From Minisyncoccia bacterium (lineage in GTDB: Bacteria > Patescibacteriota > Minisyncoccia > Phycocordibacterales > PALSA-1337), in NCBI GenBank assembly GCA_044228445.1, contig JBGAUV010000002.1, positions 140,600 through 204,599 on the forward strand: DNA of 64,000 bases, written 5' to 3'. This document shows positions 1 to 12,078 of the stretch, in pieces. The translations under genes and the position numbers were made by a program. Position 1 is the first letter of the stretch; the number at the start of each line of letters is the position of its first letter. Under the pieces are notes generated by a model. The model saw only the letters and a list, made by a program, of their open reading frames with translations, searched no databases and was not told where the DNA came from.

Positions 1-112
1 CACGGCGTTGAACTGGTCTGAAGTCGTAAGAAGGGCTTACTTGGAGCAGAAAAGCGTACACAGGGGCGAACAGGTGGCAAGAAGGGGTAAGTTTGTTGCT
101 GGGTCGCTTCTC

Positions 113-934
113 TTATTTGAAATCACCACCACTTTCATTCTCAAATTCCTTTCTGTATTGCTTCCAGCCAACAAAGTTTCCTACACGCTCATTTTCACTA
201 AGCGCTTGGGCCACATGCTCGAAAGGACTCCAGTGTCCCGATGATGCCAATCGTTCGCAAAGTTTTACATCACTTTCAACATCAGATGGTTTTCCATCAA
301 ATAGGAAATAGCTAACTCGGGCAGAACGTGCCGCACTTATCTTTTTCTTGAGTTCCGCATCAAGTTTATTTTCTTCGCCCTTTACGAAAGGCAAATGCCA
401 TTCACCCACCTTAAGCTTATCTGGCTTGGTCGATTCGAATATATTTATGATCTGTTTTGCTACTACCTGAATCTCTGGTTGTGCCGCAGGGTTGTCACGA
501 AGTTTAAGAAAATTACCCCATTCGGTAGCAGTAAGAACGATCTCTGTCATGATCCAAGGCTCGATCAATCGATTCAGGATTTCTTTATGTAGACCAGCTT
601 TCTCACCAATGTAATGGAAGAAACAAGCCACATATCGGGACCAAAGCCACACACGTTTTATAACAAAAAGTCGGAATCCTGTGATGGCCTCACCTGATGC
701 CATGCCAGCTTTATTTTCCCCGAAATAAACTGGGATGAAAGGTGTCAGGAGTACACGTGCACGCATTTTCTTTGCAGGTACTGCACGGCTTGATGCTGCA
801 TTTCTTGAGAGTGATCGGTGACTATTGATGTGTGGTTGTATGAATTTTGGTACTTTCAAAACAAACGTTGCGATCTTTTTTCCAGTCGCTTCACATTCAG
901 AGAGTGCTATCAGTTTTGTAGTTATTTCATTCAT
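113..934 (-). CDS. ThyX-like (flavin-dependent thymidylate synthase family) protein, apparently circularly permuted
   Basis: N-terminal ~185 aa align to the C-terminal two-thirds of ThyX as I recall it: ATFVLKVPKFIQPHINSHRSLSRNAASSR ~ [31 protein letters not shown], and TATEWGNFLKLRDNPAAQPEIQVVAKQIINIF ~ [34 protein letters not shown]. C-terminal ~90 aa align to the ThyX N-terminus: ISAARSARVSY...SSGHWSPFEH ~ LSAVRAARVSF...KHGHETPFEH. ATGA start/stop overlap with the upstream gene at 931-934. Confidence 0.5.
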   Translation of the reverse strand: MNEITTKLIALSECEATGKKIATFVLKVPKFIQPHINSHRSLSRNAASSRAVPAKKMRARVLLTPFIPVYFGENKAGMASGEAITGFRLFVIKRVWLWSRYVACFFHYIGEKAGLHKEILNRLIEPWIMTEIVLTATEWGNFLKLRDNPAAQPEIQVVAKQIINIFESTKPDKLKVGEWHLPFVKGEENKLDAELKKKISAARSARVSYFLFDGKPSDVESDVKLCERLASSGHWSPFEHVAQALSENERVGNFVGWKQYRKEFENESGGDFK

Positions 935-2055
935 AACTTTTCAATGACATCAGTGACCATTTCTGGTACATCTACGAAGCCCGAGTCTTTGATGTTTGAA
1001 GTAGATGCATACAGGGCTGATCCATAAAGTAAGGCTATCGTTTTTTCTATTTCGATTGGCGTAGATTCATAGCGTTTACCCTTGAATGTGATTGGAAATC
1101 CGTTATTGATAAGAGTGATATTATTCCAACGAATATCGCCATGCACATTGTCGCTTGGTTGTGTGGCTCCATTTCTTAAAAAAGTTGCTGGAAATTCTCT
1201 GTCGGATGAGGACATGCTTATAAGATAGATGCCGCTTGTAATTTTCTTATCGAGTTTGGCGATTTGTTCTGGCGTTAGAATATTTTTTCCCGTAACTCCG
1301 ACGACAGTATTTATGCGATTTTTTACAATAAAATCGACAAGCTCTTTCTCTGAATGAAAAGCTGTATCATGTCCGGTTACAAAATATCCGGCTTCTTGAA
1401 GAATAAGCATGGTATTGTTGCCCATTGGTCCGAGTCCAACTACTAAAATGCGCGGTTCAGTTACATTGTATTTGCGTATTACGTCTTCGATGCGATCGCA
1501 GCCGAGGCGTGCAATAAGTGGGCTTTCTTTATCCAATTTTATTTTAGAACGAGCAACATTGATGATTGGGAAAGATATCGACTTATTCTCAAGTTTGCGA
1601 AAACCAGATGATGTCTGTTCAATACCGACAATTTTTACTGAAATTGGCAGTTTATCTTTACGCTCGTTGAAGATATTTAACAATTCAGCTCCGTCATCAA
1701 TAATAATTACTGTGCTGGTGTCACTCAGTTTTCCTATAAGCTTTGAAAACAAATCTTCACAATTTTCTCTGTGCTGGTCATCAAAGGAGATATTGGGATC
1801 GAATGCTGGTTGCTCTGCGTCGAACCCAGAATCTTGTAATTCTTTTAGTACTTCGGTATTGGTGGAATAGATTTTGCCAATAGTATGAATGTTTTCCTTA
1901 GGTATGCCGAAGTCGGAAAGGAGGGCGAACATTTTCTCTTGTGGCTCCATGAGGTGTTGACATGCGCAAATATGCACATCTTTCAGTGACTCGTTTTGTT
2001 TTGGGAAAGCATCGGTAATGGCTTTCAAAAGTGGATAATTGTAGGAGTCTTTCAT
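931..2055 (-). CDS. S-adenosyl-L-homocysteine hydrolase-like NAD(P)-binding Rossmann protein
   Basis: IVGIEQTSSGFRKL resembles the SAHH GVSEETTTGVHRL motif. NVARSKIKLDKESPLIARLGCDRIEDVIRKYNV..ILVVGLGPMG resembles SAHH [45 protein letters not shown]. GxGxxG dinucleotide fold. 4-nt overlap coupling to the ThyX-like gene. Confidence 0.45.
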   Translation of the reverse strand: MKDSYNYPLLKAITDAFPKQNESLKDVHICACQHLMEPQEKMFALLSDFGIPKENIHTIGKIYSTNTEVLKELQDSGFDAEQPAFDPNISFDDQHRENCEDLFSKLIGKLSDTSTVIIIDDGAELLNIFNERKDKLPISVKIVGIEQTSSGFRKLENKSISFPIINVARSKIKLDKESPLIARLGCDRIEDVIRKYNVTEPRILVVGLGPMGNNTMLILQEAGYFVTGHDTAFHSEKELVDFIVKNRINTVVGVTGKNILTPEQIAKLDKKITSGIYLISMSSSDREFPATFLRNGATQPSDNVHGDIRWNNITLINNGFPITFKGKRYESTPIEIEKTIALLYGSALYASTSNIKDSGFVDVPEMVTDVIEKL

Positions 2056-2203
2056 TTTTTAATGATATCACGGGGACGGATCAAATCCTTAATTTAAGCC
2101 CTTAGATAATAACATAAGTAGTTGACTTTGTAAAGTTTTTGTGCTAGTTTAACCTCAGTAATTTCCGAACGAAAAAACACTCAAAAAACGAAAGGACTTT
2201 GTC

Positions 2204-4066
2204 ATGAAAAAACAATACTGGCTGATTCCGCTTCTCCTGGTGGCATTCATCAGGGCGGAAATGGTCGTAACTCCCGCATGGGACAGTTACGGCAAACCGG
2301 AAATGATCACCTACAACGCCTCACGGCGTGTGTATGTTGATCGGACCAACCGGATGGAAAACTGGGCGATCGCATACCGCAACACCAGCGCAGAAACACA
2401 GAAAATCTACGAGGACTTGAAAAAGCCTTTGGAGATTCCGGCCAAGCGCAAGCTCGTTTTGAAGCTCCGGACAGATTTGTTCTGTGAACAAAGGAACTAC
2501 ACATGCGCAGGCATGATGTTCCTCTCGAAGCATTCTCAAAGACGGCGACTCGTTCTGATCAACGTCGAACGGAAAGCTGACTACGAGGCACAGTATCGGG
2601 TCTGGCCGCATCTTGGCATTCTCTCTGTCGGCACTGCTGCACATGAAGAAGGCTGGGAAGTTGTGCTCTGGGACGAACTTGTCCAAGGACATGCTCCTCT
2701 TGATAAGTTAATTCAGGAGGATGACATTGTCGGATTAAGTCTCATTGTCTCGGGCATTGAACGCGGCATCGATCTTGCTCATGAAGCCAAGGAACGTGGG
2801 GCTCGGTATGTCATCGCTGGAAACGATTCAGCAATCTTCCGAGCAAACCAACTCCTTCGGCTTCCCGACAAACCGATTGACGCGGTCTTCACTTCGAACA
2901 GCCTGAATGCGGTCCGTCGCTTCTTCCGAGAAATCAACAACACGGGCATTGAAGGTATCCGCATTGCCGACGTACAAACTACGCCGGATGTGCAGAATAA
3001 GTCCAATGAACGGAGTCAGTTACTCGTTGAGATGGGCGATCGCAAACAGCTCAAGGATAGAGGAAGGTTCGAATCGGATGATGTCTTCATTGTCCCGAAG
3101 CTCGATCTTTTCCCTGAATCCTACTGGCAGGAGGTCTGGACTAACTATCGGTCGCAGTTCGGGAAGAAACACTCGAACCCAACGACTGTAAAAAATGGTC
3201 TGGCGCTTCTCGCTCAGGGCTGCACCAGGACTCGAGGAATTGATGTGTGCAGGTATTGCAGCATCTACGGCGTTGGAGACCTTCGTTTCCCATACCGCAA
3301 ATACGTTGTGGACCTTGCTGAGACCCTGAAAAGTTTCGGCATCGATATGGTCTTCAATGCAACCGACTCGGCCTTCGAAATGCGTCCTGTAGTTCAATCC
3401 TTGATCGAGGAGAATATCCGCTTCAACGGCTTGGAAATATATGTACGAGCTCAAGGCATCGCTCGAGCTCCGCAGTTGCTCGAAGAATGGATGTCGGTCG
3501 TCAAAGACCGCTTCATTGTCAATTGCGGTATGGACTCCGGTGACGATACTTCGCTCAAGCAAGGCATTGTGAAGTCATCGGTTCGTGGAGGTTCGCGTTT
3601 CGGTGAGAATCGAGAAGCAGTCCTTAACCTCAAGAAAAGTGGGGCACATCTTCACTACTCGCTCATCTTCGGTTCGCCTGGAGAGACGAGGGATACATGC
3701 GAAAGAAGTATGGAGTTTCTTGAGTGGACGATCGATACCTTGGGGAATCAGTTGGATATCTGCGAAACAGATTACTTCTGGCTGAACTTCGGTTCACCGG
3801 CCGCGCAAGTCTTCCACGACTATTCCTACGCACAAGAGCTTGCTGCCATGGCTCAGAAGTCAATCTCAAGGGAGGAATGGGAAATCAACTTTGCAAGTGT
3901 CGCCGATGCACTATCTGTGCCTGACGATACGGAAAAAGCATGGTACCGATTCTTCACGAGGATTGATTACGATACTGCAACGGAATACAACGAACGAGCC
4001 AGGTTGCGAATGGAGAAGGTCACCGGTAGCATTCGTGGCCGAGCGTTCCTTCCGCCGGTAAGTTGA
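2204..4066 (+). CDS. radical SAM superfamily-like protein with N-terminal Rossmann/B12-binding-like region (non-canonical cluster motif)
   Basis: GCTRTRGIDVCRYCS gives a Cx8Cx2C triad where rSAM has CxxxCxxC. HYSLIFGSPGET matches the rSAM GxIxGxPGET-like motif. The upstream region LGILSVGTAAHEEGWEVVLWDE is Rossmann-like. RBS gaaagga lies 8 nt upstream. ~50% G+C by my count of a 200-nt sample. Confidence 0.4.
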   Translation: MKKQYWLIPLLLVAFIRAEMVVTPAWDSYGKPEMITYNASRRVYVDRTNRMENWAIAYRNTSAETQKIYEDLKKPLEIPAKRKLVLKLRTDLFCEQRNYTCAGMMFLSKHSQRRRLVLINVERKADYEAQYRVWPHLGILSVGTAAHEEGWEVVLWDELVQGHAPLDKLIQEDDIVGLSLIVSGIERGIDLAHEAKERGARYVIAGNDSAIFRANQLLRLPDKPIDAVFTSNSLNAVRRFFREINNTGIEGIRIADVQTTPDVQNKSNERSQLLVEMGDRKQLKDRGRFESDDVFIVPKLDLFPESYWQEVWTNYRSQFGKKHSNPTTVKNGLALLAQGCTRTRGIDVCRYCSIYGVGDLRFPYRKYVVDLAETLKSFGIDMVFNATDSAFEMRPVVQSLIEENIRFNGLEIYVRAQGIARAPQLLEEWMSVVKDRFIVNCGMDSGDDTSLKQGIVKSSVRGGSRFGENREAVLNLKKSGAHLHYSLIFGSPGETRDTCERSMEFLEWTIDTLGNQLDICETDYFWLNFGSPAAQVFHDYSYAQELAAMAQKSISREEWEINFASVADALSVPDDTEKAWYRFFTRIDYDTATEYNERARLRMEKVTGSIRGRAFLPPVS

Positions 4067-4083
4067 AGTTCTTTGATCACAAG

Positions 4084-4116
4084 GCCCTCTGGTTCACTCC
4101 GGAGGGTCTTTTTTCG
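4084..4116 (+). terminator. intrinsic terminator after the rSAM-like gene
   Basis: Hairpin CCCTCTGG-N6-CCGGAGGG (one G-U pair) followed by TCTTTTTT. Confidence 0.6.
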
Positions 4117-4133
4117 TGATAAAATGTAAAAAC

Positions 4134-4793
4134 ATGAAAGAAAAAGCCATTGAAATACTGACACAAGTCCAAAAAGATAACCCGTTCATTAAGTCTATTT
4201 ACCTCTGGGGATCGATTACGACAGACGAATATACTGAAGGAAAAAGTGATATAGATGCTATAGCTTTTGTTGAGGAAAACACAGATTCTTCTGCAAGAGA
4301 CAGGATCAATGAAGTTCTTAGTAAAGAAATTTCTAGTCTCAAGATTAATTTTCTTTATGAATCAGAGCTGAATGATGGTCCATCAAAAGGCGGTCTTACG
4401 AAAGTCATACATCCTGCAGTAATTCTTTATGATTTTCCTGCATGGATTTATATAGATGGTGCTCAGTATAGAAAAGAAGATTTTAGTTCAGGTAGAACCT
4501 CATTAGATGAAGTTATAGGTATTTTAACAAACACGATTAAGGACAGGTTCCTACCTATTCCAAACGAGCAGGATTGTGTTTATTTTGTAAAAGCAGTAGC
4601 AAAACTTTTATATTTCAAAAATCAGAGAAGCTTACCATTCAAAGCATTTCGGTATGCTGACTTGATCGTTGATTCTAATGTGGAGGACAAAGATATTGCA
4701 GTTATTATTAGTGAGCTAAAGAAATCAAGTTGGAATCGACAGTTAATAGCTGAAAAAGCACCAGAAATTATTTCTTTTGTTAACCGTCTATAG
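4134..4793 (+). CDS. Pol-beta superfamily nucleotidyltransferase, ANT/AadA/Lnu-like
   Basis: YLWGSITTDEYTEGKSDIDAIAFV matches the GS...[DE]hDhhhhV nucleotidyltransferase signature (compare AadA HLYGSAVDGGLKPHSDIDLLVTV). The track start at 4116 is GTG; ATG at 4134 (MKEKAIEIL) is more likely. Confidence 0.55.
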   Translation: MKEKAIEILTQVQKDNPFIKSIYLWGSITTDEYTEGKSDIDAIAFVEENTDSSARDRINEVLSKEISSLKINFLYESELNDGPSKGGLTKVIHPAVILYDFPAWIYIDGAQYRKEDFSSGRTSLDEVIGILTNTIKDRFLPIPNEQDCVYFVKAVAKLLYFKNQRSLPFKAFRYADLIVDSNVEDKDIAVIISELKKSSWNRQLIAEKAPEIISFVNRL

Positions 4794-4865
4794 ATTTTGA
4801 ATTTGGTAACTTATGGAGTATACTAGGGGTGTTAAAGAGATAGAGGTGGTCCCTTTCTGTAACCT

Positions 4866-5066
4866 ATGAATATGAAAGACAAATTTTTCAAATTTTACGC
4901 CAATCTTCCTATGAATCTTCGTAAGGAGATTGTTTTAGATTTGGGTGCAGACCAAGGTGGTCCTATCACTTGGGAAGTGGCCTATAGAGAAATAGATGCT
5001 GATACAGATTTGGGTAAAAAGATACTTGAAAAATTAATCGAGCTTAAATTCATTCCTACTGAATAA
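4866..5066 (+). CDS. small hypothetical protein (66 aa), paralog of the next ORF
   Basis: RBS agaggtgg upstream. Shares a GKK(I/L)LE/IE..L C-terminal motif and overall pattern with ORF 5070-5306. Confidence 0.4.
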   Translation: MNMKDKFFKFYANLPMNLRKEIVLDLGADQGGPITWEVAYREIDADTDLGKKILEKLIELKFIPTE

Positions 5067-5069
5067 ATT

Positions 5070-5306
5070 ATGAATCAAAATGTAACAAACAATCCAGTAG
5101 AATTAAACCAGGATATCATCAACTTGGTTATTGCTCGTTTGAAGACTATTCCCTCAAACGCAACCCTTTCTGTTGGTAGTGATAAAGAACCGATGTCAGC
5201 AGAAGTTCTTATTGAGGAAGTAAAGAAACAAACTGAAATTGGTAAGAAGCTTATTGAATCACAACTCTTTTTCTTGCGCTCTCTGCAGGATTTACCTGTA
5301 GCCTAA
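5070..5306 (+). CDS. small hypothetical protein (78 aa), paralog of the previous ORF
   Basis: Starts 4 nt after the previous stop. EIGKKLIESQLF resembles DLGKKILEKLIEL of the neighbour. Confidence 0.4.
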   Translation: MNQNVTNNPVELNQDIINLVIARLKTIPSNATLSVGSDKEPMSAEVLIEEVKKQTEIGKKLIESQLFFLRSLQDLPVA

Positions 5307-5314
5307 TATGATTT

Positions 5315-5938
5315 ATGTCACTTCTTATCACTCGCCCAAAATATGAATTGGTCACTCACTATTTCTACCATTGGAGTGAGGAAATTGTAAAAGAAGCTAA
5401 GAAAAGGATATCGAGCGTTATTGATCTTCAAAAAGAGAAGGCTTCTCGAAAACTTGTCGATAGTTATCTTGAGAAACAAAAGCCGGAGATAGCTATTTTC
5501 AATGGTCATGGCAATGATGTATGTATCACAGGACACAATCAAGAGGTCCTTATTGAGTCTGGTAAAAACTCTCACTTACTTAAGGACAAAGTTGTATATA
5601 TGCGCTCATGTGACTCTGGCAAGACGCTCGGACCACAGGCTATAAAAGAGGGCTGTAAGGCATTTATCGGTTATCGAGAACCTTTTAATATTTGGACAGA
5701 CAGAACGTCAGTCAATGAGCCTTTGAAAGATACATACGCTAAACCTTTCTTTGAAACTTCAAACGAAGTGCCACTTTCTCTAATCAAGGGCAAGACTGCC
5801 CGGGAAGCTCATAATGAAAGCATGACTGCATACCGTAAAGTTATCTCTCATCTGCTTACAAGCAATGCTGAAAACTCATTCGTAGTATCTGACCTTATTT
5901 GGAATATGCATAACCAGGTGTGTTTGGAGAAAAATTAG
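5315..5938 (+). CDS. hypothetical protein with His-Gly...Cys dyad reminiscent of clan CD (caspase-like) peptidases
   Basis: IAIFNGHGND and VVYMRSCDSG: each candidate catalytic residue follows a hydrophobic strand, His then Cys, ~35 aa apart. Assignment is tentative. Confidence 0.25.
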   Translation: MSLLITRPKYELVTHYFYHWSEEIVKEAKKRISSVIDLQKEKASRKLVDSYLEKQKPEIAIFNGHGNDVCITGHNQEVLIESGKNSHLLKDKVVYMRSCDSGKTLGPQAIKEGCKAFIGYREPFNIWTDRTSVNEPLKDTYAKPFFETSNEVPLSLIKGKTAREAHNESMTAYRKVISHLLTSNAENSFVVSDLIWNMHNQVCLEKN

Positions 5939-6432
5939 TGATGCATACATTTCTTAAAAAAGATTCATTGGATAGTTGGAATACATTGCCGCCGGTGCCA
6001 ACTGAAAAAATTATAAATGTAAATTGTCACAAATTTGTCTTATGCGAGTTAGGAAAAATTACTTGGGACAATATGGTCTCTGAGAGTAGGGACGAAGATT
6101 TCACTTTTGGTGAGAAAATTCGAGGTATATCAGATCTTTCTTATAGGCATATAACCACTCTCGAATCATTACTGTCACTTGCTGGTGAGGTGTGTAACGT
6201 CGGCAAGATTTACATTGGTCAAATCCGAGACTCGCAAACGGGAGAGATGGCACATTCATTTATTGTTGATGTGCAGCAGAATAATCATTATGTGTGCTTT
6301 GATAAGCCGGGGTTTAAATATCCCTTTCAAGTCAGCAATCTTGAGGAAATCTGGGGCTTCGTCAATAAAGATGGTGAGAGGTCAAATCAAAATCAAGAAT
6401 GGAGATTTATACCAATCGAGGAAGTGAGGTGA
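5920..6432 (+). CDS. hypothetical protein (170 aa)
   Basis: ORF overlapping the previous gene by 19 nt. No recognisable motif. Confidence 0.4.
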   Translation: MFGEKLVMHTFLKKDSLDSWNTLPPVPTEKIINVNCHKFVLCELGKITWDNMVSESRDEDFTFGEKIRGISDLSYRHITTLESLLSLAGEVCNVGKIYIGQIRDSQTGEMAHSFIVDVQQNNHYVCFDKPGFKYPFQVSNLEEIWGFVNKDGERSNQNQEWRFIPIEEVR

Positions 6433-6556
6433 ATATTGCGAACATTGTGCACTTTATCGGGTAAGCACGGCACTTAGGGATTGCAGAGCAAATTTAGTAT
6501 AATCCTTAACACCCGCCAGTTCTGAAAGCCAAGTTGAGGGGTCATGCAATAAAAAC

Positions 6557-6590
6557 AAAGGGCATCTATGATGCCTTTTGTTTTTGTTGC
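6557..6590 (+). terminator. intrinsic terminator
   Basis: AAAGGGCATC-TAT-GATGCCTTTT followed by TGTTTTTGTT. Confidence 0.55.
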
Positions 6591-6885
6591 ATATGATTCT
6601 ACTGGAGATGAGAAGGCCGGACTGAGCGAAGGCGAAGGAGGCGGGGTCGACAGCCGAGCTAGCAGGCGAGGACTAGTGACCGATTCCCTGCAGGGTCACG
6701 ATTGACTTTTATAAAAAGTATGCTATTATTTTAATGCTAGTTCTTTGATTATTTGTCATAGCTGAAAGTGACTTAATTTGTAGGTAATTTTCGGCTATGA
6801 CAAAACCGTGATTGCGGCAATGTCATCTTGTACAAAAAATGGTATTCCTTTCAAGGATACGCCAACAAAGTGAAAGACTAAACCA

Positions 6886-7638
6886 ATGAATGGTACAGCT
6901 GATAAGGTGGAAATTGAAGAAGTTGATCTGTGTGATGATGGAAGGAGCTTGCCAGGGACAGAGTTGTCCTTAGCACACTCACTTTTCTGTGCACTGCGAG
7001 ACGAAGGTTTTGATGAAAGTGACATTGGTAAGCTTGTAAAAGCAAAGCCTGAGTTGCTCGGGTATATCCTCGGATTTCTACGAGGAGAAGTTCAACTTCA
7101 CGATATTCCTTGCGAACTTGTAAACCTGGACAAACATCCTGGTATTAAGCGTGACAAGAAAAAGAAAATCAACTTGTTCAGGGATCTCAGATTGGGTACA
7201 TGGCTCACGGATTGGTCTGACGGGATAAAAATCGCTGGCAAGTATGTTGACATTGTTCGCCCGAGGGGATTAGGTCTGCAGAGCCGTGGCTTTTTTACCC
7301 GAAGTACACTCAATCCTGAAAAAAACAGGGATGAGTATTGTATCGACCTAAATGCGCAGGCGGCAAAGTGGTTCTATGAGAATCACAAAGACGCAACCCG
7401 TAACTTCTTTGAGTGTGTAGGTCGTATAGCGAAATCCGACGAATGGAATGATGATAAAATCTTCTTTTTGGGAACACTTTGGTCAGTGGATGGAGTAGCT
7501 CATGCCATGGCTTTGGTATCGGATAGTGAAGGTTATATTTACTGTCGACTCGAGCCACTTCCAAGTGGTGATTGGCCAGAGAACTGCTATATTGCTGTTC
7601 TGGTTGATAACCTAGAAGTGCTTAAGAGTTACAAGTAG
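6886..7638 (+). CDS. hypothetical protein (250 aa), GC-rich ORFan
   Basis: Long ORF with no recognisable motif. G+C clearly above backbone. Confidence 0.4.
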   Translation: MNGTADKVEIEEVDLCDDGRSLPGTELSLAHSLFCALRDEGFDESDIGKLVKAKPELLGYILGFLRGEVQLHDIPCELVNLDKHPGIKRDKKKKINLFRDLRLGTWLTDWSDGIKIAGKYVDIVRPRGLGLQSRGFFTRSTLNPEKNRDEYCIDLNAQAAKWFYENHKDATRNFFECVGRIAKSDEWNDDKIFFLGTLWSVDGVAHAMALVSDSEGYIYCRLEPLPSGDWPENCYIAVLVDNLEVLKSYK

Positions 7639-7674
7639 CGCTTCATAAGTTGAAGAACTTATTAAAATCTTCAA

Positions 7675-7702
7675 GCCACACCCCGATAGGTGTGGCTTTT
7701 AT
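7675..7702 (+). terminator. intrinsic terminator
   Basis: GCCACACC-CCGATA-GGTGTGGC followed by TTTTATC. A second small hairpin ATAAGTT-GAAG-AACTTAT sits at 7644-7662. Confidence 0.55.
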
Positions 7703-7774
7703 CATATTTAATTTTGCTATAAACAAAGACAATAATTTTTATTTATGCTAAATTAATTTAATACATAAACTAAC

Positions 7775-8374
7775 ATGCCCCAAAAACCCATTATAGCCAT
7801 TGATATTGATGATGTTCTTGCAGAAAATGCTCGTGGTTTTGTGGAATGGAGTAATAAAAGGTTTGATACTAGTTTAACTCCTGATGATTATAATGAACAT
7901 TGGTCTGAAATGTGGAAGATTGACAATGAAGAATTAGAAAAAAGAGCACATGAATTTCGTAACTCAGATCATGTTAGTGCATACAGTGCAATTCCGGGAG
8001 CTAAACAAGCTTTAGAAATACTTAAGACTAAATTCACACTTATTCTTATCACAAGTCGTGTGGCTACAATGAAAAATTTAACAAAAGAATGGATTGAAAA
8101 AAATTATCCAAATATCTTTAGTGACTATATCTTTTGTGGTTTTTATGATGGTCCTGTGTCCAGTGGTTTAAAATTAACAAAAGCAGAATTTGCAAAAGAT
8201 ATAAAAGCTGATTATTTAATAGATGATCAAGTTAAGCATGTGGAAGCATGTTCAAATCTAGGAATTAAATCATTATTATTTGGTAATTATTCTTGGAATA
8301 AGGATGTAAAGCTAAATAATAATATAACTAGGGTAAGTGATTGGGGAGAGGTGTTGAGATATTTTAATTTATAA
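7775..8374 (+). CDS. HAD-superfamily 5'(3')-deoxyribonucleotidase-like phosphatase
   Basis: N-terminal IAIDIDDVLA (DxDxV HAD motif I, like NT5C DMDGVLAD). ~200 aa. Confidence 0.55.
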   Translation: MPQKPIIAIDIDDVLAENARGFVEWSNKRFDTSLTPDDYNEHWSEMWKIDNEELEKRAHEFRNSDHVSAYSAIPGAKQALEILKTKFTLILITSRVATMKNLTKEWIEKNYPNIFSDYIFCGFYDGPVSSGLKLTKAEFAKDIKADYLIDDQVKHVEACSNLGIKSLLFGNYSWNKDVKLNNNITRVSDWGEVLRYFNL

Positions 8375-8382
8375 AACAAAAC

Positions 8383-8414
8383 TCGCGTAGAAGCCGAAGC
8401 ATTCTACGCGAGGG
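8383..8414. terminator. hairpin between convergent genes (mainly a minus-strand terminator)
   Basis: CTCGCGTAGAA-N9-TTCTACGCGAG. A- and T-rich run (AAAACAAAA on the plus strand) lies immediately 5' of the hairpin, giving a U-run in the minus orientation. Confidence 0.5.
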
Positions 8415-8418
8415 TTGG

Positions 8419-8703
8419 TCAAAGGAGTCTGCCGATTTTAGCTTCAATTGACCTAACCACATCAGGGTGTGGGTAATTCTCAGTGATAGCAGTAGCAATG
8501 ACTGCTGCAATACCGCCAGTTGCCCAGTACTTCCAAAAACTAATTTTGTACTGGCCACTTACTGGATCAAATTCAACCCAGTTTTTTGAATTCTTACTTT
8601 TGAACTTAGGTTCTGTCATTGTTCCTTTGACAGTGAGTCCGAATTCCTTCGCAACCTTCCCCAGCTGTTCCTTGCTGAGGACCGACTTTTGAGTTGTTTT
8701 CAT
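8419..8703 (-). CDS. hypothetical protein (94 aa)
   Basis: ORF with the terminator immediately downstream. No known motif. Confidence 0.35.
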   Translation of the reverse strand: MKTTQKSVLSKEQLGKVAKEFGLTVKGTMTEPKFKSKNSKNWVEFDPVSGQYKISFWKYWATGGIAAVIATAITENYPHPDVVRSIEAKIGRLL

Positions 8704-8837
8704 CGTTCTTTTTTTACCGCCACATACTATATAACATATTTCAGGATATAAGTCAATGTTAGATTTTACCTTATTTATTAATCATTTTATAACAATAATA
8801 TTTAATATATAATGTATACAATACTTTTTTAAATAAA

Positions 8838-9455
8838 ATGAATAAGAAATATTTTTTAATTCCCATATTTTTAATCATTGGTTTTATTGCAATATATTTC
8901 TTTACAAATAAGCCTATTATTAAAAACTATCCTCCAAAGAGTCAGACTATTATTGCATTCGGAGATAGCCTTATTAGAGGAACTGGTAGTACATTAGGTA
9001 ATGACTTTATTTCTCTTTTATCAAAAAAATTAAATAAAAATATAATAAATGAAGGTATACCTGGTGAAACTACTAGTGATGCTTTAAATAGAGTTGATGA
9101 AATTATAAATAAAGACCCAGGAATTGTTATTTTATTATTTGGTGGCAATGACTATTTAAGAAATAGACCTCAAACAGAGACTTTTAGTAATTTAAGACTT
9201 CTGATTAAAAAATTACAGGATAATGGTAGTATGGTCATTCTTTTAGGGATTAGAGGGGGACTTTTGGTGGATAAATTTAGCTCTGATTTTGAAAAATTGG
9301 CAGATGAAACTGGTGTTATTTTTATACCAAATGTTCTTGAGGGTCTCATAGGTAAACCAAAGTATATGTCTAGTGATAATATTCACCCAAACAATGAAGG
9401 ATATGCAAGGATTGCTGATAAGGTCTATAATAAAATTAATAAATACATTAAATAA
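8838..9455 (+). CDS. SGNH/GDSL-family hydrolase (lipase/esterase-like), membrane-anchored
   Basis: AFGDSLIRG (GDSL block I), LLFGGND (block III), DNIHPN (DxxH block V). N-terminal TM helix. Confidence 0.8.
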   Translation: MNKKYFLIPIFLIIGFIAIYFFTNKPIIKNYPPKSQTIIAFGDSLIRGTGSTLGNDFISLLSKKLNKNIINEGIPGETTSDALNRVDEIINKDPGIVILLFGGNDYLRNRPQTETFSNLRLLIKKLQDNGSMVILLGIRGGLLVDKFSSDFEKLADETGVIFIPNVLEGLIGKPKYMSSDNIHPNNEGYARIADKVYNKINKYIK

Positions 9456-9974
9456 ATGAAAAAAATATTTTTTATATTAATTACGATTGTGGTACTTATT
9501 TCAGGTGTTTTTTACTATAATAAATTAAATACAGGTTATAAAGTCGTAAATAATAAACTTCATCATTTTTCTTTTAAATACCCAAGTTCATGGAAAATAA
9601 TTGGAAGTGGTAAAACAATTGAACAATCTAGTTTTGTAAGTGTTATAGGTAATAATATTTCTTTTACAATAACTCAATATGATAATACTAAAGGCTATAC
9701 ACCTAAACAGTGGTATGAAAGAGATACAATAGAAAAATTAGGACCTAATAATTATCCATATCCGGAAAAACTTGTTGCAAGTACTCAGAATACTATTTTA
9801 AATGGATACAATGCATATAAGGTAGTTACAAATGATGCAGGTGCTAGTTATGACTATTTTTTATCAAAAGGAAATGAAATATACGTAATTAATATAGAAA
9901 GAAACGATACGATTGATTATTCAAAAAATCAAAGATATATAGATGATATTTTAAACAGTCTGTCTTGGAATTAA
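9456..9974 (+). CDS. hypothetical membrane-anchored protein (172 aa)
   Basis: Starts immediately after the GDSL hydrolase stop. N-terminal TM helix. Confidence 0.45.
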   Translation: MKKIFFILITIVVLISGVFYYNKLNTGYKVVNNKLHHFSFKYPSSWKIIGSGKTIEQSSFVSVIGNNISFTITQYDNTKGYTPKQWYERDTIEKLGPNNYPYPEKLVASTQNTILNGYNAYKVVTNDAGASYDYFLSKGNEIYVINIERNDTIDYSKNQRYIDDILNSLSWN

Positions 9975-10064
9975 TTATTTAAAATGAATAAATTGACATA
10001 AAATAAAAAAGTATTATCCTTTTTGTAGAAGTACAAAAAATCAAAACAACTAAAAGGAGGAAAT

Positions 10065-10931
10065 ATGGAAAAAGATGAAAGGGAGGATTTTCTATTAAAG
10101 AGCTATCTAAATGATGTCCGTGATTACAATCTCATTTCCAGAGATAGAGAGGTTCAACTCGCTCAAGAAATAGCAAAAAGAAATAACGAAGCAAGAAATG
10201 AACTTGCTCTAGCAAATGTACGTTTAGTGATAAAAATCGCTATGGACTTTGACGGCTATGGTCTTTCTATTCATGACTTAATCCAAGAGGGTAACACTGG
10301 TCTCATGAAGGCTGTTGATAGATTTGACCCAACTAAGGGTGCAAAGTTTTCTACTTATGCAGCTTGGTGGATCAAACAGGCAATTAAAAGAGCTTTAAGT
10401 AACTCAGGATTTACCGTAAGGATTCCAGTTCATCTCGTGCAGTCAATTTCTAATTTGAATAGATTCAGAGAAAAATTTGAGAAGGAAAATAGAAGGTTAC
10501 CAAATGATGATGAAATTAAACAAGAACTAGGTCTTGTTGCTGATACAGTTGACGCAGCAAAGACCGTGCGAAATGGTAGAATATCACTTGATTCAAAATT
10601 TGGTGAAAGTGAGATAAGTCTTTCTGATATTCTCGAGGATGAAACATCTATCAATCCATCTTCTGCTAATGAGCTAGATGATCAACTTTCTAATTTAGCT
10701 GATCTAGTTAATAGATTAAGTAACAGAGAAAAAAACATAATCGAGTGTCGTTTTGGTCTTAATGGCAAAGAACAGATGATACTTGATGATATCGGTAAAA
10801 TTTATGGAATAACCCGAGAGAGAGTTAGACAAATTGAGGCAAAAGCACTTAAGAAGTTGCGGAATTGGCTTGATAAAAAGAATTCCGAAGTAGATCTTGA
10901 TTTGCCACCAGCAGTCTACAATGTTGGATAA
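10065..10931 (+). CDS. rpoD: RNA polymerase sigma-70 family factor (compact, 288 aa)
   Basis: Region 2 (DLIQEGNTGLMKAVDRFD, STYAAWWIKQAIKRAL). Region 4 HTH (LDDIGKIYGITRERVRQIEAKALKKLR). Strong RBS aaaggagg upstream. Confidence 0.85.
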   Translation: MEKDEREDFLLKSYLNDVRDYNLISRDREVQLAQEIAKRNNEARNELALANVRLVIKIAMDFDGYGLSIHDLIQEGNTGLMKAVDRFDPTKGAKFSTYAAWWIKQAIKRALSNSGFTVRIPVHLVQSISNLNRFREKFEKENRRLPNDDEIKQELGLVADTVDAAKTVRNGRISLDSKFGESEISLSDILEDETSINPSSANELDDQLSNLADLVNRLSNREKNIIECRFGLNGKEQMILDDIGKIYGITRERVRQIEAKALKKLRNWLDKKNSEVDLDLPPAVYNVG

Positions 10932-10943
10932 AACATACACAAA

Positions 10944-10971
10944 CAGCCTGACTACGTCAGGCTTGTTTTTA
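10944..10971 (+). terminator. intrinsic terminator after rpoD
   Basis: CAGCCTGAC-TAC-GTCAGGCTTG followed by TTTTT. Confidence 0.6.
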
Positions 10972-11130
10972 TATATAAAATAAGACTAAAAAGAGCGATT
11001 TTATCCACAGTTTTAGCTTGCTTTACTTTTTATCTTATGTATGGTATACTCTCTATCAGACGTTTGCAGTACATTGCAAACAAAAAATATTGCTTCGTCC
11101 CTAAGACGAAGCGCAACCAAAGGATAAAGA

Positions 11131-12078
11131 ATGAAAAAGTTCACGGCGATTGTCGTGACATTGTTCACGGCAATCCTTTCCCTTGCGCTCGTCGCAAGGG
11201 GACAAGCACCTGCGGGTGCTGCGGGTGCCATTGTGGTGCCACCGGTGTTCCCGGAGTTCCTGCCAATCGGAGACGAGTGGCAGATGAAGGACTGGGCGGT
11301 GACTAACCGTCAGTTCCGGATGAACGGAAACCCTTACAATGTGTCGACAATCTGGAGTATTGAGTATACTGAGGGTAATGGCTCTACTAGTACAATGGGA
11401 GCATCATCTTCAGGATACAAGTTTCTAGACTGGGATGACTTCATGCATACAGCTCAGAAGATCGGTCTCGATCTTCTGAGGCGCGTAAAGGCTACAAATA
11501 CTTTTGATAATACCAAAACCATGAAGTTCTCAGTGATTCATGGTTATGACAACATTGTCGCTCGAAAGGGTGTCAATGCTGTATATATCCGTAAGGATAT
11601 TGGTCTTGTTGAAGGTGTTGGTCCAGAATCATTTTTGGATGAAACGGGATTGATACTCCTTCAAGGAGTGGTTCGTGTTGATGGTCTTGAGAAGTTCGAA
11701 GTGACCACTAATGGTGGGTACTCTTGGACTGAGAGACCTGTACAAGACTACTTCGTCCTTAAATTTAGTGATCTTGAATCCGGGAATCCTATCCGGTACA
11801 GGGTTACTGCTAAAGGACAGTCTCAGGTTTACACCCAGACCGGAGATAAACTGTCTCAACCTACAGTCAGAGTTTTGAACGATAAAGTGATCGTTCTATA
11901 CAAGACTCCTGGTTCCAAGACTAGGATCGAGTATAAAAACTCTTTTGATGGTGAATGGGTCATTATGAAGGAGTTTCCCTCAACTGACTTGAGCCAGTAC
12001 AAAGAGATACTGAACTATCCACCAGAAATCGGTTCCGGTGGAGTCAGTATAAGGCTCTTCCGAGCCTCGTCGGAATAA
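11131..12078 (+). CDS. secreted hypothetical protein (315 aa), GC-rich
   Basis: Signal-peptide-like N-terminus MKKFTAIVVTLFTAILSLALVA. The 5' UTR holds a perfect hairpin GCTTCGTC-CCTAA-GACGAAGC at 11091-11111. Confidence 0.5.
   Translation: MKKFTAIVVTLFTAILSLALVARGQAPAGAAGAIVVPPVFPEFLPIGDEWQMKDWAVTNRQFRMNGNPYNVSTIWSIEYTEGNGSTSTMGASSSGYKFLDWDDFMHTAQKIGLDLLRRVKATNTFDNTKTMKFSVIHGYDNIVARKGVNAVYIRKDIGLVEGVGPESFLDETGLILLQGVVRVDGLEKFEVTTNGGYSWTERPVQDYFVLKFSDLESGNPIRYRVTAKGQSQVYTQTGDKLSQPTVRVLNDKVIVLYKTPGSKTRIEYKNSFDGEWVIMKEFPSTDLSQYKEILNYPPEIGSGGVSIRLFRASSE

Follow-up and report, generated by a model that had tools for sequence, protein, structure and literature searches.

The genes g2, g3 and g4, located in a window of 64,000 nucleotides (the whole stretch of DNA that was analysed) from a Minisyncoccia bacterium, form a previously undescribed operon, all three genes of which are conserved together in ultra-small organisms of the CPR (bacteria) and DPANN (archaea) groups; a full-text literature search found the cassette described nowhere in the papers searched. 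In all 68 fetched loci in which g4 is complete and its 5' DNA is available (about 60 of them non-redundant), homologues of g2 and g3 directly precede g4 in the same orientation. The functional unit is an operon of three genes and about 1.1 kb, which comprises a promoter at 4797-4824 and g2, g3 and g4, and which ends at position 5938. The original prediction had assumed a single module of five genes, including g1 and g5 on either side of the trio. Dispersal of the genes in relatives, which bears directly on this assumption, was found for g1 and g5, refuting the five-gene module, whereas g2-g3-g4 proved to be syntenic throughout.

A three-gene operon among five co-directional genes

The open reading frames g1 to g5 (4116/4134-4793, 4866-5066, 5070-5306, 5315-5938 and 5920/5941-6432) are all encoded in the same direction on the forward strand and, as had been noted before, are tightly spaced. 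The distances between them are 72, 3, 8 and -19 nt; if g5 starts at the ATG at 5941, the overlap of g4 and g5 is replaced by a gap of +2 nt. All five are real genes, and homologues of each are conserved elsewhere. The reading frame of g1 reaches a GTG at 4116 and g5 has an alternative GTG start at 5920; however, the ATG codons at 4134 and 5941 are probably the starts, because they are the starts chosen in a separate annotation of an identical contig (L001).

The two bounding terminators and the intermediate G+C content of the original prediction were likewise recovered. A terminator-like hairpin at 4076-4120 on the forward strand has a stem of 12 bp, of which 7 are G-C pairs, and a T-run behind it, with a folding energy of -25 kcal/mol (z = -6.6); it closes the upstream B12/radical-SAM gene and lies outside the g2-g3-g4 cassette. 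On the other side, a perfect 22-bp palindrome with A- and T-runs either side (6545-6591; -30.3 kcal/mol, z = -9.4, on the plus strand and -21.8 kcal/mol, z = -6.3, on the minus strand) looks like a bidirectional terminator. The G+C content of the five-gene stretch is 0.37, compared with 0.48-0.50 just upstream and about 0.31 in the remaining window. An Rfam scan of the whole window yielded no RNA family.

The 72-nt gap 3' of g1 contains a predicted promoter, TTGAAT-N16-TATACT, at 4797-4824 on the forward strand, with 9 of 12 consensus matches. Both hexamers are kept 5' of g2 in seven of eight aligned related copies of the cassette (L012a/b, L013, L014 and L016-L018), while in the eighth (L024) the -10 alone aligns. 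A perfect TATAAT is present within 60 nt of g2 in 36 of 58 bacterial loci, compared with 6.1 +/- 2.3 in shuffles, a six-fold enrichment, and in archaeal loci a TATA-like box is discernible by eye about 27 nt 5' of the ATG. These patterns indicate that the cassette has its own promoter, which is conserved in the clade of the window.

The cassette loci are spread over many lineages of Patescibacteria as well as DPANN archaea, and the gaps between the cassette genes range from -38 to +24 nt across the 68 loci. As the genome scan used two peptide patterns only, the 60 loci represent a lower bound and do not amount to a prevalence figure. A fourth component was not detected: after BLAST clustering, any other neighbour family was confined to at most 5 of 57 loci, and any Pfam family to at most 2 of the 105 immediate neighbours. 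The pairwise identities of g2, g3 and g4 are correlated (r = 0.70-0.81), that is, the three proteins have diverged together. They also exhibit a consistent charge pattern, g2 and g3 being acidic (pI 5.4, as the median, and 5.1, respectively) and g4 basic (8.5), and for none of the three was a membrane segment or a signal peptide predicted.

The two acidic mini-proteins

The first gene of the cassette, g2 (4866-5066, forward strand), encodes an acidic mini-protein of 66 aa with the invariant residues P15, R19, W36 and E42, and its mean pairwise identity of 0.55 is the highest of the three cassette proteins (0.44 for g4). The following gene, g3 (5070-5306, forward strand), encodes an acidic mini-protein of 78 aa in which L24, G36 and G58 are invariant. 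Its core of helix, beta-hairpin, helix and helix is preceded by a polar N-terminal tail that varies in sequence and comprises 9-21 residues. In both proteins, a variable C-terminal tail follows the conserved core. Sequence, profile and family-wide scans gave no PDB or Pfam match for g2; for g3, the PDB sequence and profile searches gave nothing significant, and structure searches detected no fold relative of either protein. A weak match to DUF1380 in 5 of 56 g3 members (best E value 3.7e-5) is a lead, not an assignment.

The suggestion that the two mini-proteins are paralogous appears probable. An hhalign comparison aligned g2 and g3 in register with P = 0.003, albeit at a probability of 10%, and the g2 profile matched g3 at an E value of 5e-4, while the reverse profile search found nothing. 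Two proteins, P0136 and P0137, contain g2 and g3 fused in nature, although they might be assembly or frameshift artefacts. The fold of g2 and g3 was taken from a model of the fusion P0136, which was chosen because MAFFT split the rows containing g2 only onto the g3 half. In this model, the g3 half has a pLDDT of 89-96, the g2 half is of moderate confidence, and the arrangement of the two domains is uncertain (pTM 0.47); a common beta-beta-alpha-alpha core is predicted for both proteins. A ribbon-helix-helix or sigma-region-4-like fold for g2 and g3 was also considered; this reading was dropped because both fold searches failed to support it and both proteins are acidic.

A predicted minimal caspase-fold peptidase

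The third gene, g4 (5315-5938, forward strand), encodes a single-domain protein of 207 aa that is predicted, from its modelled structure and an invariant dyad, to be a clan CD cysteine peptidase of the caspase/gingipain/CHAT fold. The structure was predicted with high confidence (pLDDT 97.1, pTM 0.92), and the model shows the fold that characterizes clan CD, an alpha/beta/alpha sandwich around a mostly parallel central sheet, of the kind that can be superposed on caspases, gingipains and legumain. Across 42 sequences, down to 30% identity, the residues N63-G64-H65-G66, C99, G106, G119-Y120 and D139 are invariant. The His-Gly and Cys arrangement that had been recognized before was thus confirmed: the motif N63-G64-H65-G66 follows a strand at 59-63 and C99 a strand at 93-97, so that His65, with the adjacent Gly66, precedes Cys99 in the order of the dyad. 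According to the model, g4 is probably a minimal cytoplasmic clan CD cysteine peptidase that is active with a His65/Cys99 dyad.

The homologues of g4 comprise 2742 clusters at 50% identity, and nearly all of the 150 best-scoring ones are about 205-220 aa long. Neither g4 nor the 42 family members matched a clan CD family of Pfam (Peptidase_C14, C25, C13, C11, CHAT, C50, C80 or U57) at gathering score, and g4 had no match in NCBIfam, PHROGs, PADLOC or the PDB sequence search. Weak matches to YabG/U57 in 4 of the 42 members, with E values of 0.03-0.07 far under the cut-off, are a lead and not an assignment. g4 represents a new minimal, sequence-orphan family within clan CD.

Several known members of the clan were compared with g4. 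The catalytic domain of the gingipains R and K (MEROPS C25; RgpB prodomain complex, PDB 4ief and 4rbm) shares 11% identity with g4, which lacks a Pfam C25 match. Unlike g4, a single domain of 207 aa without a signal peptide, the gingipains are virulence proteases of large size and several domains that are secreted, and the partner of RgpB is a prodomain, whereas the candidate partners of g4 are two separate genes. The CHAT defence proteases that were compared, namely SAVED-CHAT (8tl0), the Craspase Csx29 with Csx30, Csx31 and RpoE (7y83, 7y9x and 7zoq) and the anti-sigma factor DdvA (8rot), are proteins of 480-900 aa with sensor domains such as SAVED and TPR. g4 lacks any additional domain, its surroundings contain neither CRISPR nor CBASS genes, and neither Pfam nor PADLOC yielded a CHAT match. 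Separase (MEROPS C50) is eukaryotic, far larger and without sequence relation to g4, and its partner securin is intrinsically disordered, while g3 is predicted to be folded. In comparison with the metacaspases and orthocaspases (MEROPS C14B), g4 is shorter, has no Peptidase_C14 match, lacks a p10-like region and an autoprocessing loop, and is always paired with two small genes.

Another cysteine protease conserved in CPR bacteria, CPR-C4, resembles g4 in that it had no sequence annotation and was recognized through its structure only (PMC9108980). However, it belongs to a different family and fold, which is transglutaminase/vasohibin-like, its catalytic order is Cys61 followed by His93, the reverse of that in g4, and no conserved gene neighbourhood was reported for it (PMC9108980). 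An identity of g4 or g5 with the CPR-C4/vasohibin-like proteases was rejected, as neither matched any PDB chain and the order of the dyad in g4 is reversed.

Possible functions of the operon

On balance it appears probable, if only just, that g2-g3-g4 constitute a self-contained proteolytic switch in which g4 is combined with a dedicated partner formed by g2 and g3. The tightly coupled reading frames would allow g2 and g3 to be made in a fixed ratio with g4; g2 and g3 would then, most likely as a heterodimer, bind the basic protease as its dedicated partner, and this partner might be a regulator, a pseudosubstrate inhibitor or the substrate of g4 itself. In the ultra-small bacteria of the CPR and archaea of the DPANN group, the three proteins would then provide a proteolytic switch that is self-contained and located in the cytoplasm. 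The proteolytic activity of g4, the dimerization of g2 and g3, their binding to g4 and the function as a switch are all four what we infer from the predicted fold, the charge pattern, the synteny and the co-divergence.

A second and rather unlikely explanation takes the three genes as a tripartite module for toxin-antitoxin action or for defence by abortive infection: g4 would be a protease toxin restrained by the labile acidic antitoxins g2 and g3, and it would be freed upon stress or phage attack and cleave essential host proteins. Type II toxin-antitoxin systems consist of a small labile antitoxin with an autoregulatory DNA-binding domain and a coupled toxin, and are patchily distributed and horizontally mobile. 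In the cassette, which has its own promoter, small acidic genes precede the gene of a basic enzyme in overlapping or coupled frames, and this order, coupling and charge pattern would fit such a system; a DNA-binding domain was not detected in g2 or g3 by sequence, profile or fold searches. Moreover, antitoxins usually evolve faster than toxins, whereas g2, with its mean identity of 0.55, is more conserved than the enzyme g4 (0.44).

With respect to mobility, the genomic context of the cassette differs in each lineage, one genome contains two copies with g4 proteins that are 97% identical, one copy (on an IMG/VR contig) is located at the border of an inovirus-like prophage, next to an integrase, 7 of 58 loci have a tRNA gene no more than 250 nt away, and the G+C content of the cassette is on average 4 points under that of its flanks. 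Nevertheless, the G+C content of the cassette follows that of the host (r = 0.78), the four archaeal sequences form one clade and the bacterial clades loosely track taxonomy, g4 was not found in GenBank phages or PLSDB plasmids, and the immediate neighbours show no enrichment of genes for mobile elements or defence. Clan CD proteases of the CHAT type, which are among the PDB matches of g4, are known as effectors of CRISPR type III-E and CBASS systems; yet no model of PADLOC-DB 2.0 matches g2, g3 or g4 (nor g5), and g1 had only weak matches there, so that the PADLOC search lent no support to the toxin-antitoxin or defence reading of the original prediction. If such a reading applies at all, it concerns the g2-g3-g4 cassette and not the nucleotidyltransferase g1.

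In a third explanation, which we consider distinctly improbable, g2 and g3 would be precursors or have a structural role, and g4 would be dedicated to their processing or transpeptidation, its cleavage releasing or attaching a peptide. By analogy, this would parallel the legumain-type ligases, the GPI transamidase and the sortase-like C25 enzymes, and the invariant Arg19 of g2, the variable polar N-terminal tail of g3 and the variable C-terminal tails of both proteins might be seen in this light. However, the tail boundaries carry no conserved cleavage motif, the conserved residues are located in the folded cores and do not conform to a leader/core peptide layout, none of the three proteins has a signal peptide or membrane segment, and no transporter or modification enzyme recurs nearby.

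The flanking genes g1 and g5

The genes g1 and g5 are unrelated genes that flank the cassette by chance in this genome. g1 (4134-4793, forward strand) encodes a Pol-beta-type nucleotidyltransferase of 219 aa, and the original assignment to this superfamily holds: the match to Pfam NTP_transf_2 (PF01909; E value 2.1e-7, 31.7 bits) exceeds the cut-off of 21, and the motif G26-S27 ... D39-I-D41 is conserved in a relative with 66% identity (L072), which is itself located without the cassette and without a HEPN partner. This was the sole assignment obtained when all five proteins were scanned against Pfam, NCBIfam, PHROGs and PADLOC. Judged from its sequence, g1 is a generic member of the superfamily. 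The core motif G-S ... D-x-D is shared with MNT/MntA (PDB 1ylq, AF0614) and with the ANT/Lnu enzymes, but g1 remains under all family thresholds, has an extra helical, unannotated C-terminal half of about 130 aa, and has no HEPN partner. The likeness to aminoglycoside or lincosamide adenylyltransferases that had been noted is confined to this common motif, as g1 matched no ANT or Lnu model of NCBIfam at E <= 1, and PDB searches with g1 itself and with a profile of two sequences gave nothing significant and no ANT/Lnu chain at E <= 10; both collections presumably hold such models and chains. An antibiotic-resistance reading is left without support by these results.

Systems of the MNT-HEPN type (type VII toxin-antitoxin) combine a minimal nucleotidyltransferase of about 100-140 aa with a HEPN toxin that has the motif R-x4-6-H and is either fused to it or encoded next to it. 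Membership of g1 was rejected in view of its 219 aa, its score against MntA (18.3 bits in NCBIfam, with a cut-off of 60) and the lack of a partner: no neighbour matched a HEPN family, and direct reading revealed no R-x4-6-H in the C-terminal half of g1. Matches of g1 to the PADLOC candidate nucleotidyltransferase models PDC-S09 and PDC-M70A were weak (E values about 1e-3).

g5 (5941-6432, forward strand) encodes a conserved Patescibacteria protein of 163 aa with the invariant residues C29-H30, H105 and C119. It is not an ORFan, as had been supposed, since at least 59 protein clusters contain homologues with 43-67% identity, although no match was found in Pfam, NCBIfam, PHROGs or PADLOC, nothing consistent in family-wide Pfam scans and nothing significant in PDB searches. 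It is absent next to the cassette except in near-identical contigs, and its relatives occur in different surroundings; in UBA5187, the closest relative genome, g5 has an NT5C gene as its neighbour, an arrangement that is almost matched in this window. g5 is probably co-transcribed with the cassette here, yet it is not a cassette member.

A five-gene accessory module, with g1 as an ANT-like antibiotic-modifying enzyme accompanied by hitchhikers or as part of an MNT/HEPN-type toxin-antitoxin pair, is hardly credible and is largely refuted by synteny, for the co-directional arrangement of five genes between two hairpins, the Pol-beta motif of g1 and its sub-threshold MntA match are outweighed by the occurrence of g1 and g5 with the trio in near-identical contigs only (g1 is absent beside the cassette in all non-identical loci), by the different context of the 66%-identical relative of g1, by the lack of ANT/Lnu matches, HEPN partner and R-x4-6-H, and by the conserved promoter between g1 and g2. 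Tight spacing between two terminators does not make a module, and the observation that three of the five genes travel together here is a caution for annotation.

Implications

A large part of microbial diversity belongs to the CPR bacteria and DPANN archaea, but, to our knowledge, functions have been assigned to only a minority of the conserved genes that are specific to these lineages. The cassette offers a tractable entry point, as it is compact, easily synthesized and contains an enzymatic core of about 207 aa with exactly two candidate partners; this combination of a compact operon, a clear enzymatic core and two candidate partners makes a defined biochemical experiment possible. As a new minimal family of clan CD, g4 bears on the origins of the caspase, metacaspase and CHAT proteases and on the minimum size of a regulated caspase-fold enzyme. 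It is conceivable, although somewhat doubtful, that the operon encodes a cross-domain proteolytic system specific to ultra-small episymbionts, comprising the smallest known stand-alone caspase-fold protease and a paralogous heterodimer of new fold. If this were true, the system would govern a lifestyle decision of the episymbionts, for example, dormancy or cell death, attachment to the host, or the turnover of a conserved target.

The conserved unit within the five-gene stretch

Five open reading frames follow one another on the forward strand of the window: a nucleotidyltransferase gene, g1 (4116-4793 from a GTG or 4134-4793 from an ATG), two mini-protein genes, g2 (4866-5066) and g3 (5070-5306), the gene for a His-Gly/Cys protein, g4 (5315-5938), and g5 (5920-6432 from a GTG or 5941-6432 from an ATG). 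They are separated by 72, 3, 8 and -19 nt, the last gap being +2 nt if g5 starts at the ATG at 5941. The stretch is flanked by terminator-like hairpins, one at 4076-4120 (-25 kcal/mol, z = -6.6) and one with a 22-bp palindrome at 6545-6591 (-30.3 kcal/mol, z = -9.4), both of which are far more stable than shuffled sequence, and its G+C content of 0.37 lies between that just upstream (~0.49) and that of the remaining window (~0.31). The closest relatives of the window are Patescibacteria/Paceibacterota MAGs. The anatomy described in the original prediction, that is, the five genes with their spacing, the flanking hairpins and the intermediate G+C, is thus real, but the grouping of all five genes into one module is wrong, because only g2-g3-g4 are kept together across loci.

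Distant homologues of g4 have two small ORFs immediately 5' in every context checked, and neither a nucleotidyltransferase gene nor g5. Searches with the five window proteins recovered homologues of g2 and g3 in 68 of 71 fetched loci; in the other three, upstream DNA is missing (L003, L069) or only a C-terminal remnant of g4 is present (L071). The gene order g2, g3, g4 on a single strand does not vary, with distances of -26 to +24 nt and -38 to +12 nt, and g1 and g5 accompany the trio only in L001-L003, contigs encoding proteins identical to those of the window. There is no sign of a fourth recurrent component: on clustering, no other neighbour family is shared by more than 5 of 57 loci, and no Pfam family is present in more than two of 105 immediate neighbours. 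The mean pairwise identity is highest for g2 (0.55), followed by g4 (0.44) and g3 (0.42), and the correlation of these identities (r = 0.70-0.81) indicates that the three proteins diverge together.

A promoter-like consensus match, TTGAAT-N16-TATACT, lies in the g1-g2 gap (4797-4824, forward strand). Both hexamers are kept 5' of g2 in seven of eight aligned related cassettes, the eighth (L024) aligning only at the -10 box, and a perfect TATAAT occurs at most 60 nt upstream of g2 in 36 of 58 bacterial loci, versus 6.1 +/- 2.3 in shuffles. In many loci, including L033, L038, L045, L050, L053, L054, L063, L064 and L070, only 6-12 nt separate the end of a perfect or extended -10 box from the g2 ATG, a distance that suggests leaderless or near-leaderless cassette transcripts. 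Inspection by eye of the four archaeal loci revealed a TATA-like box roughly 27 nt upstream of the ATG. Across the window-clade cassettes, the alignment of upstream regions (A11) shows a conserved CGTCT motif some 15 nt 5' of the -35 hexamer; in the window this motif overlaps the final g1 codons and the stop codon (4785-4793), so that conservation at the left end of the cassette extends into the 3' end of g1. Comparison across loci shows a predicted autonomous unit, with three genes that are co-transcribed, translationally coupled and co-diverging.

A clan-CD fold in g4

No sequence family was matched by g4 in Pfam, NCBIfam, PHROGs, PADLOC or PDB sequences, or in a family-wide Pfam scan. An AlphaFold2 model of very high confidence (pLDDT 97.1, pTM 0.92) has the fold and catalytic dyad of clan CD, the caspase/gingipain/CHAT-fold cysteine peptidases. 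The His-Gly/Cys arrangement noticed earlier is borne out by an alignment of 42 sequences, in which N63-G64-H65-G66, C99, G106, G119-Y120 and D139 are invariant. Overall, g4 is a putative cytoplasmic enzyme of clan-CD fold with an invariant dyad, and since it lies outside every described clan-CD sequence family that could be tested, it is best described, on its predicted structure, as a new family within the clan. A profile search with a cut-off of E <= 1e-3 retrieved 2742 clusters (50% identity), 412 of them with E <= 1e-30, and the best-scoring 150 of the 2742 are nearly all single-domain proteins of ~205-220 aa.

The mini-proteins g2 and g3

Neither g2 nor g3 matched Pfam, NCBIfam, PHROGs, PADLOC or PDB sequences. 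Both are acidic (median pI 5.4 and 5.1, respectively) and g4 is basic (8.5); no membrane-like segment was found in any of the three. That the two mini-proteins are paralogues, as originally proposed, is probable and moderately supported: a g2 profile matches g3 among the window ORFs (E 5e-4), hhalign pairs 32 in-register columns (P = 0.003, probability 10%), and MAFFT co-alignment yields the common pattern (L/I)P-x-N ... G ... E(V/I) ... (T/D)x(L/I)GKKIxE, but BLASTP between the two detected no similarity and the g3 profile did not match g2 among the window ORFs. A joint profile collects 948 proteins, two of which are in-frame g2-g3 fusions, P0136 (153 aa) and P0137 (133 aa, labelled Nanoarchaeota), which could be genuine or artefacts of assembly or frameshift. 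In the model of P0136 (overall pTM 0.47), the g3 half is confident (pLDDT 89-96) and consists of a helix, a beta-hairpin and two further helices, and the moderately confident g2 half has the same beta-beta-alpha-alpha core. Five of 56 g3 homologues (alignment A5) weakly match Pfam DUF1380 (best E 3.7e-5), an enterobacterial plasmid protein family of unknown function.

The flanking genes and the surrounding DNA

The Pol-beta nucleotidyltransferase signature of g1 is genuine (Pfam NTP_transf_2, E 2.1e-7, above threshold; G26-S27 and D39-x-D41). The proposed resemblance to aminoglycoside (ANT) or lincosamide (Lnu) nucleotidyltransferases was not upheld: no ANT, Lnu or MntA family was reached at threshold in NCBIfam, and a PDB search returned no ANT or Lnu structure, its sole match being the minimal nucleotidyltransferase AF0614 (E 0.07-0.27). 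The C-terminal half of g1 (~130 aa) is unannotated, and direct reading found no HEPN R-x4-6-H motif in it. A relative at 66% identity is flanked by unrelated genes in a context of its own.

Far from being an ORFan, g5 has homologues in 59 Patescibacteria clusters (43-67% identity), with invariant N28-C29-H30, D97, T100, E102, H105-S106-F107, C119 and W154-R155. The order Cys ... His ... Cys/Asp would suit a papain-type thiol hydrolase; no known family was matched in Pfam or PDB. Relatives of g5 occupy other genomic contexts (L073-L077). In UBA5187, the Patescibacteria genome with the closest cassette, the g5 homologue lies on a different contig from the cassette and directly 5' of an NT5C gene; as the window also has an NT5C gene (7775-8374), 1.3 kb downstream of g5, g5 belongs to the right-hand context. 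In this strain, the cassette is placed between g1 and g5.

Composition is patchy over positions 1-12000 of the window (G+C 0.26 to 0.50, near 0.49 in a B12-binding radical-SAM gene at 2204-4066) and steady near 0.30-0.33 over the remaining 52 kb; the first 12 kb may represent a foreign or accessory gene island. The 450 nt at 6433-6885 have no convincing ORF and no Rfam match. The palindromic terminator lies in this stretch, as do a patch rich in G+C (~6600-6700) and a strong promoter-like site (6702-6729; 10/12 matches, extended TG).

Distribution and mobility

When one genome per GTDB species was scanned with two peptide patterns, 60 loci were recovered, a lower bound, under labels that include Paceibacterota, Nomura-, Wolfe-, Giovannoni-, Yanofsky-, Staskawicz-, Buchanan-, Jackson-, Kuenen- and Uhrbacteria, Gracilibacteria, Peribacteria, Levyibacteriota, Woesearchaeota and other archaea. 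Source names on members of the three families are mostly CPR or DPANN; the few GTDB labels Gammaproteobacteria, Bdellovibrionales and Methanosarcinales are considered doubtful, because these sequences group with CPR or DPANN in the tree. In this simple neighbour-joining distance tree of about 60 g4 sequences, the four sequences from archaea make up a single clade, and the bacteria fall into loosely coherent groups, Gracilibacteria and Peribacteria, for instance, being placed together. Cassette G+C follows that of the flanks (r = 0.78), with a mean 4 points lower.

Signs of mobility exist and are minor. The whole cassette occurs twice in UBA5187, as direct copies (L012:3251-4391 and L012:8617-9757) that lie 5366 nt apart and have g4 proteins that are 97% identical, indicating recent duplication. 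In an IMG/VR UViG (3300025162_000499, L078:2657-6621), the cassette lies directly downstream of tyrosine integrase, Rep-like and Zot-like P-loop genes, at the edge of an apparent integrated inovirus-like element, and a host ABC-transporter gene borders the cassette on its opposite flank. In 7 of 58 loci (L039, L041, L054, L056, L060, L061, L064) a tRNA gene is found within about 250 nt of the cassette, against a rough chance expectation of ~2, L054 and L056 being near-duplicates. GenBank phages and PLSDB plasmids yielded no g4. Decay of g4 was also observed: at L070:4261-4906 the coding sequence is broken between two frames, and the remnant at L071:2859-3143 has no g2 or g3 nearby.

Discussion

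From the paralogy of g2 and g3, their adjacency and coupling, and the few fusions, we infer that the two would pair as a heterodimer. This heterodimer would bind the basic g4 as its dedicated regulator, pseudosubstrate or substrate, and the three proteins together would form a self-contained proteolytic switch, a general reading that we hold to be somewhat better than an even bet. Its protease-plus-partner logic has precedents in securin-separase, the RgpB prodomain and Csx30-Craspase, systems that the cassette would resemble in its manner of working. CHAT systems have sensor domains and locus partners, whereas the cassette has neither.

A toxin-antitoxin or abortive-infection module, to which we give perhaps one chance in a few, would account for the gene order and charge pattern as well as for the variable context and the duplicate copy; however, PADLOC gave no match, no DNA-binding fold was found, the tree is lineage-coherent, and g2 is conserved above the putative enzyme g4. 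Rather improbable is a precursor-processing or transpeptidase system, for although clan-CD ligases are known and the variable tails fit, conservation sits in the folded cores and the cassette lacks export or modification partners. A five-gene module centred on an ANT enzyme is essentially refuted by synteny and is hardly tenable.

It should be noted that a literature search in a limited full-text library found no description of the cassette, which is not proof of novelty. CPR-C4, which is unrelated to g4, is likewise a CPR-wide cysteine protease recognised via structure alone. The value of the locus lies in an undescribed three-gene caspase-fold protease cassette that is common to CPR bacteria and DPANN archaea.
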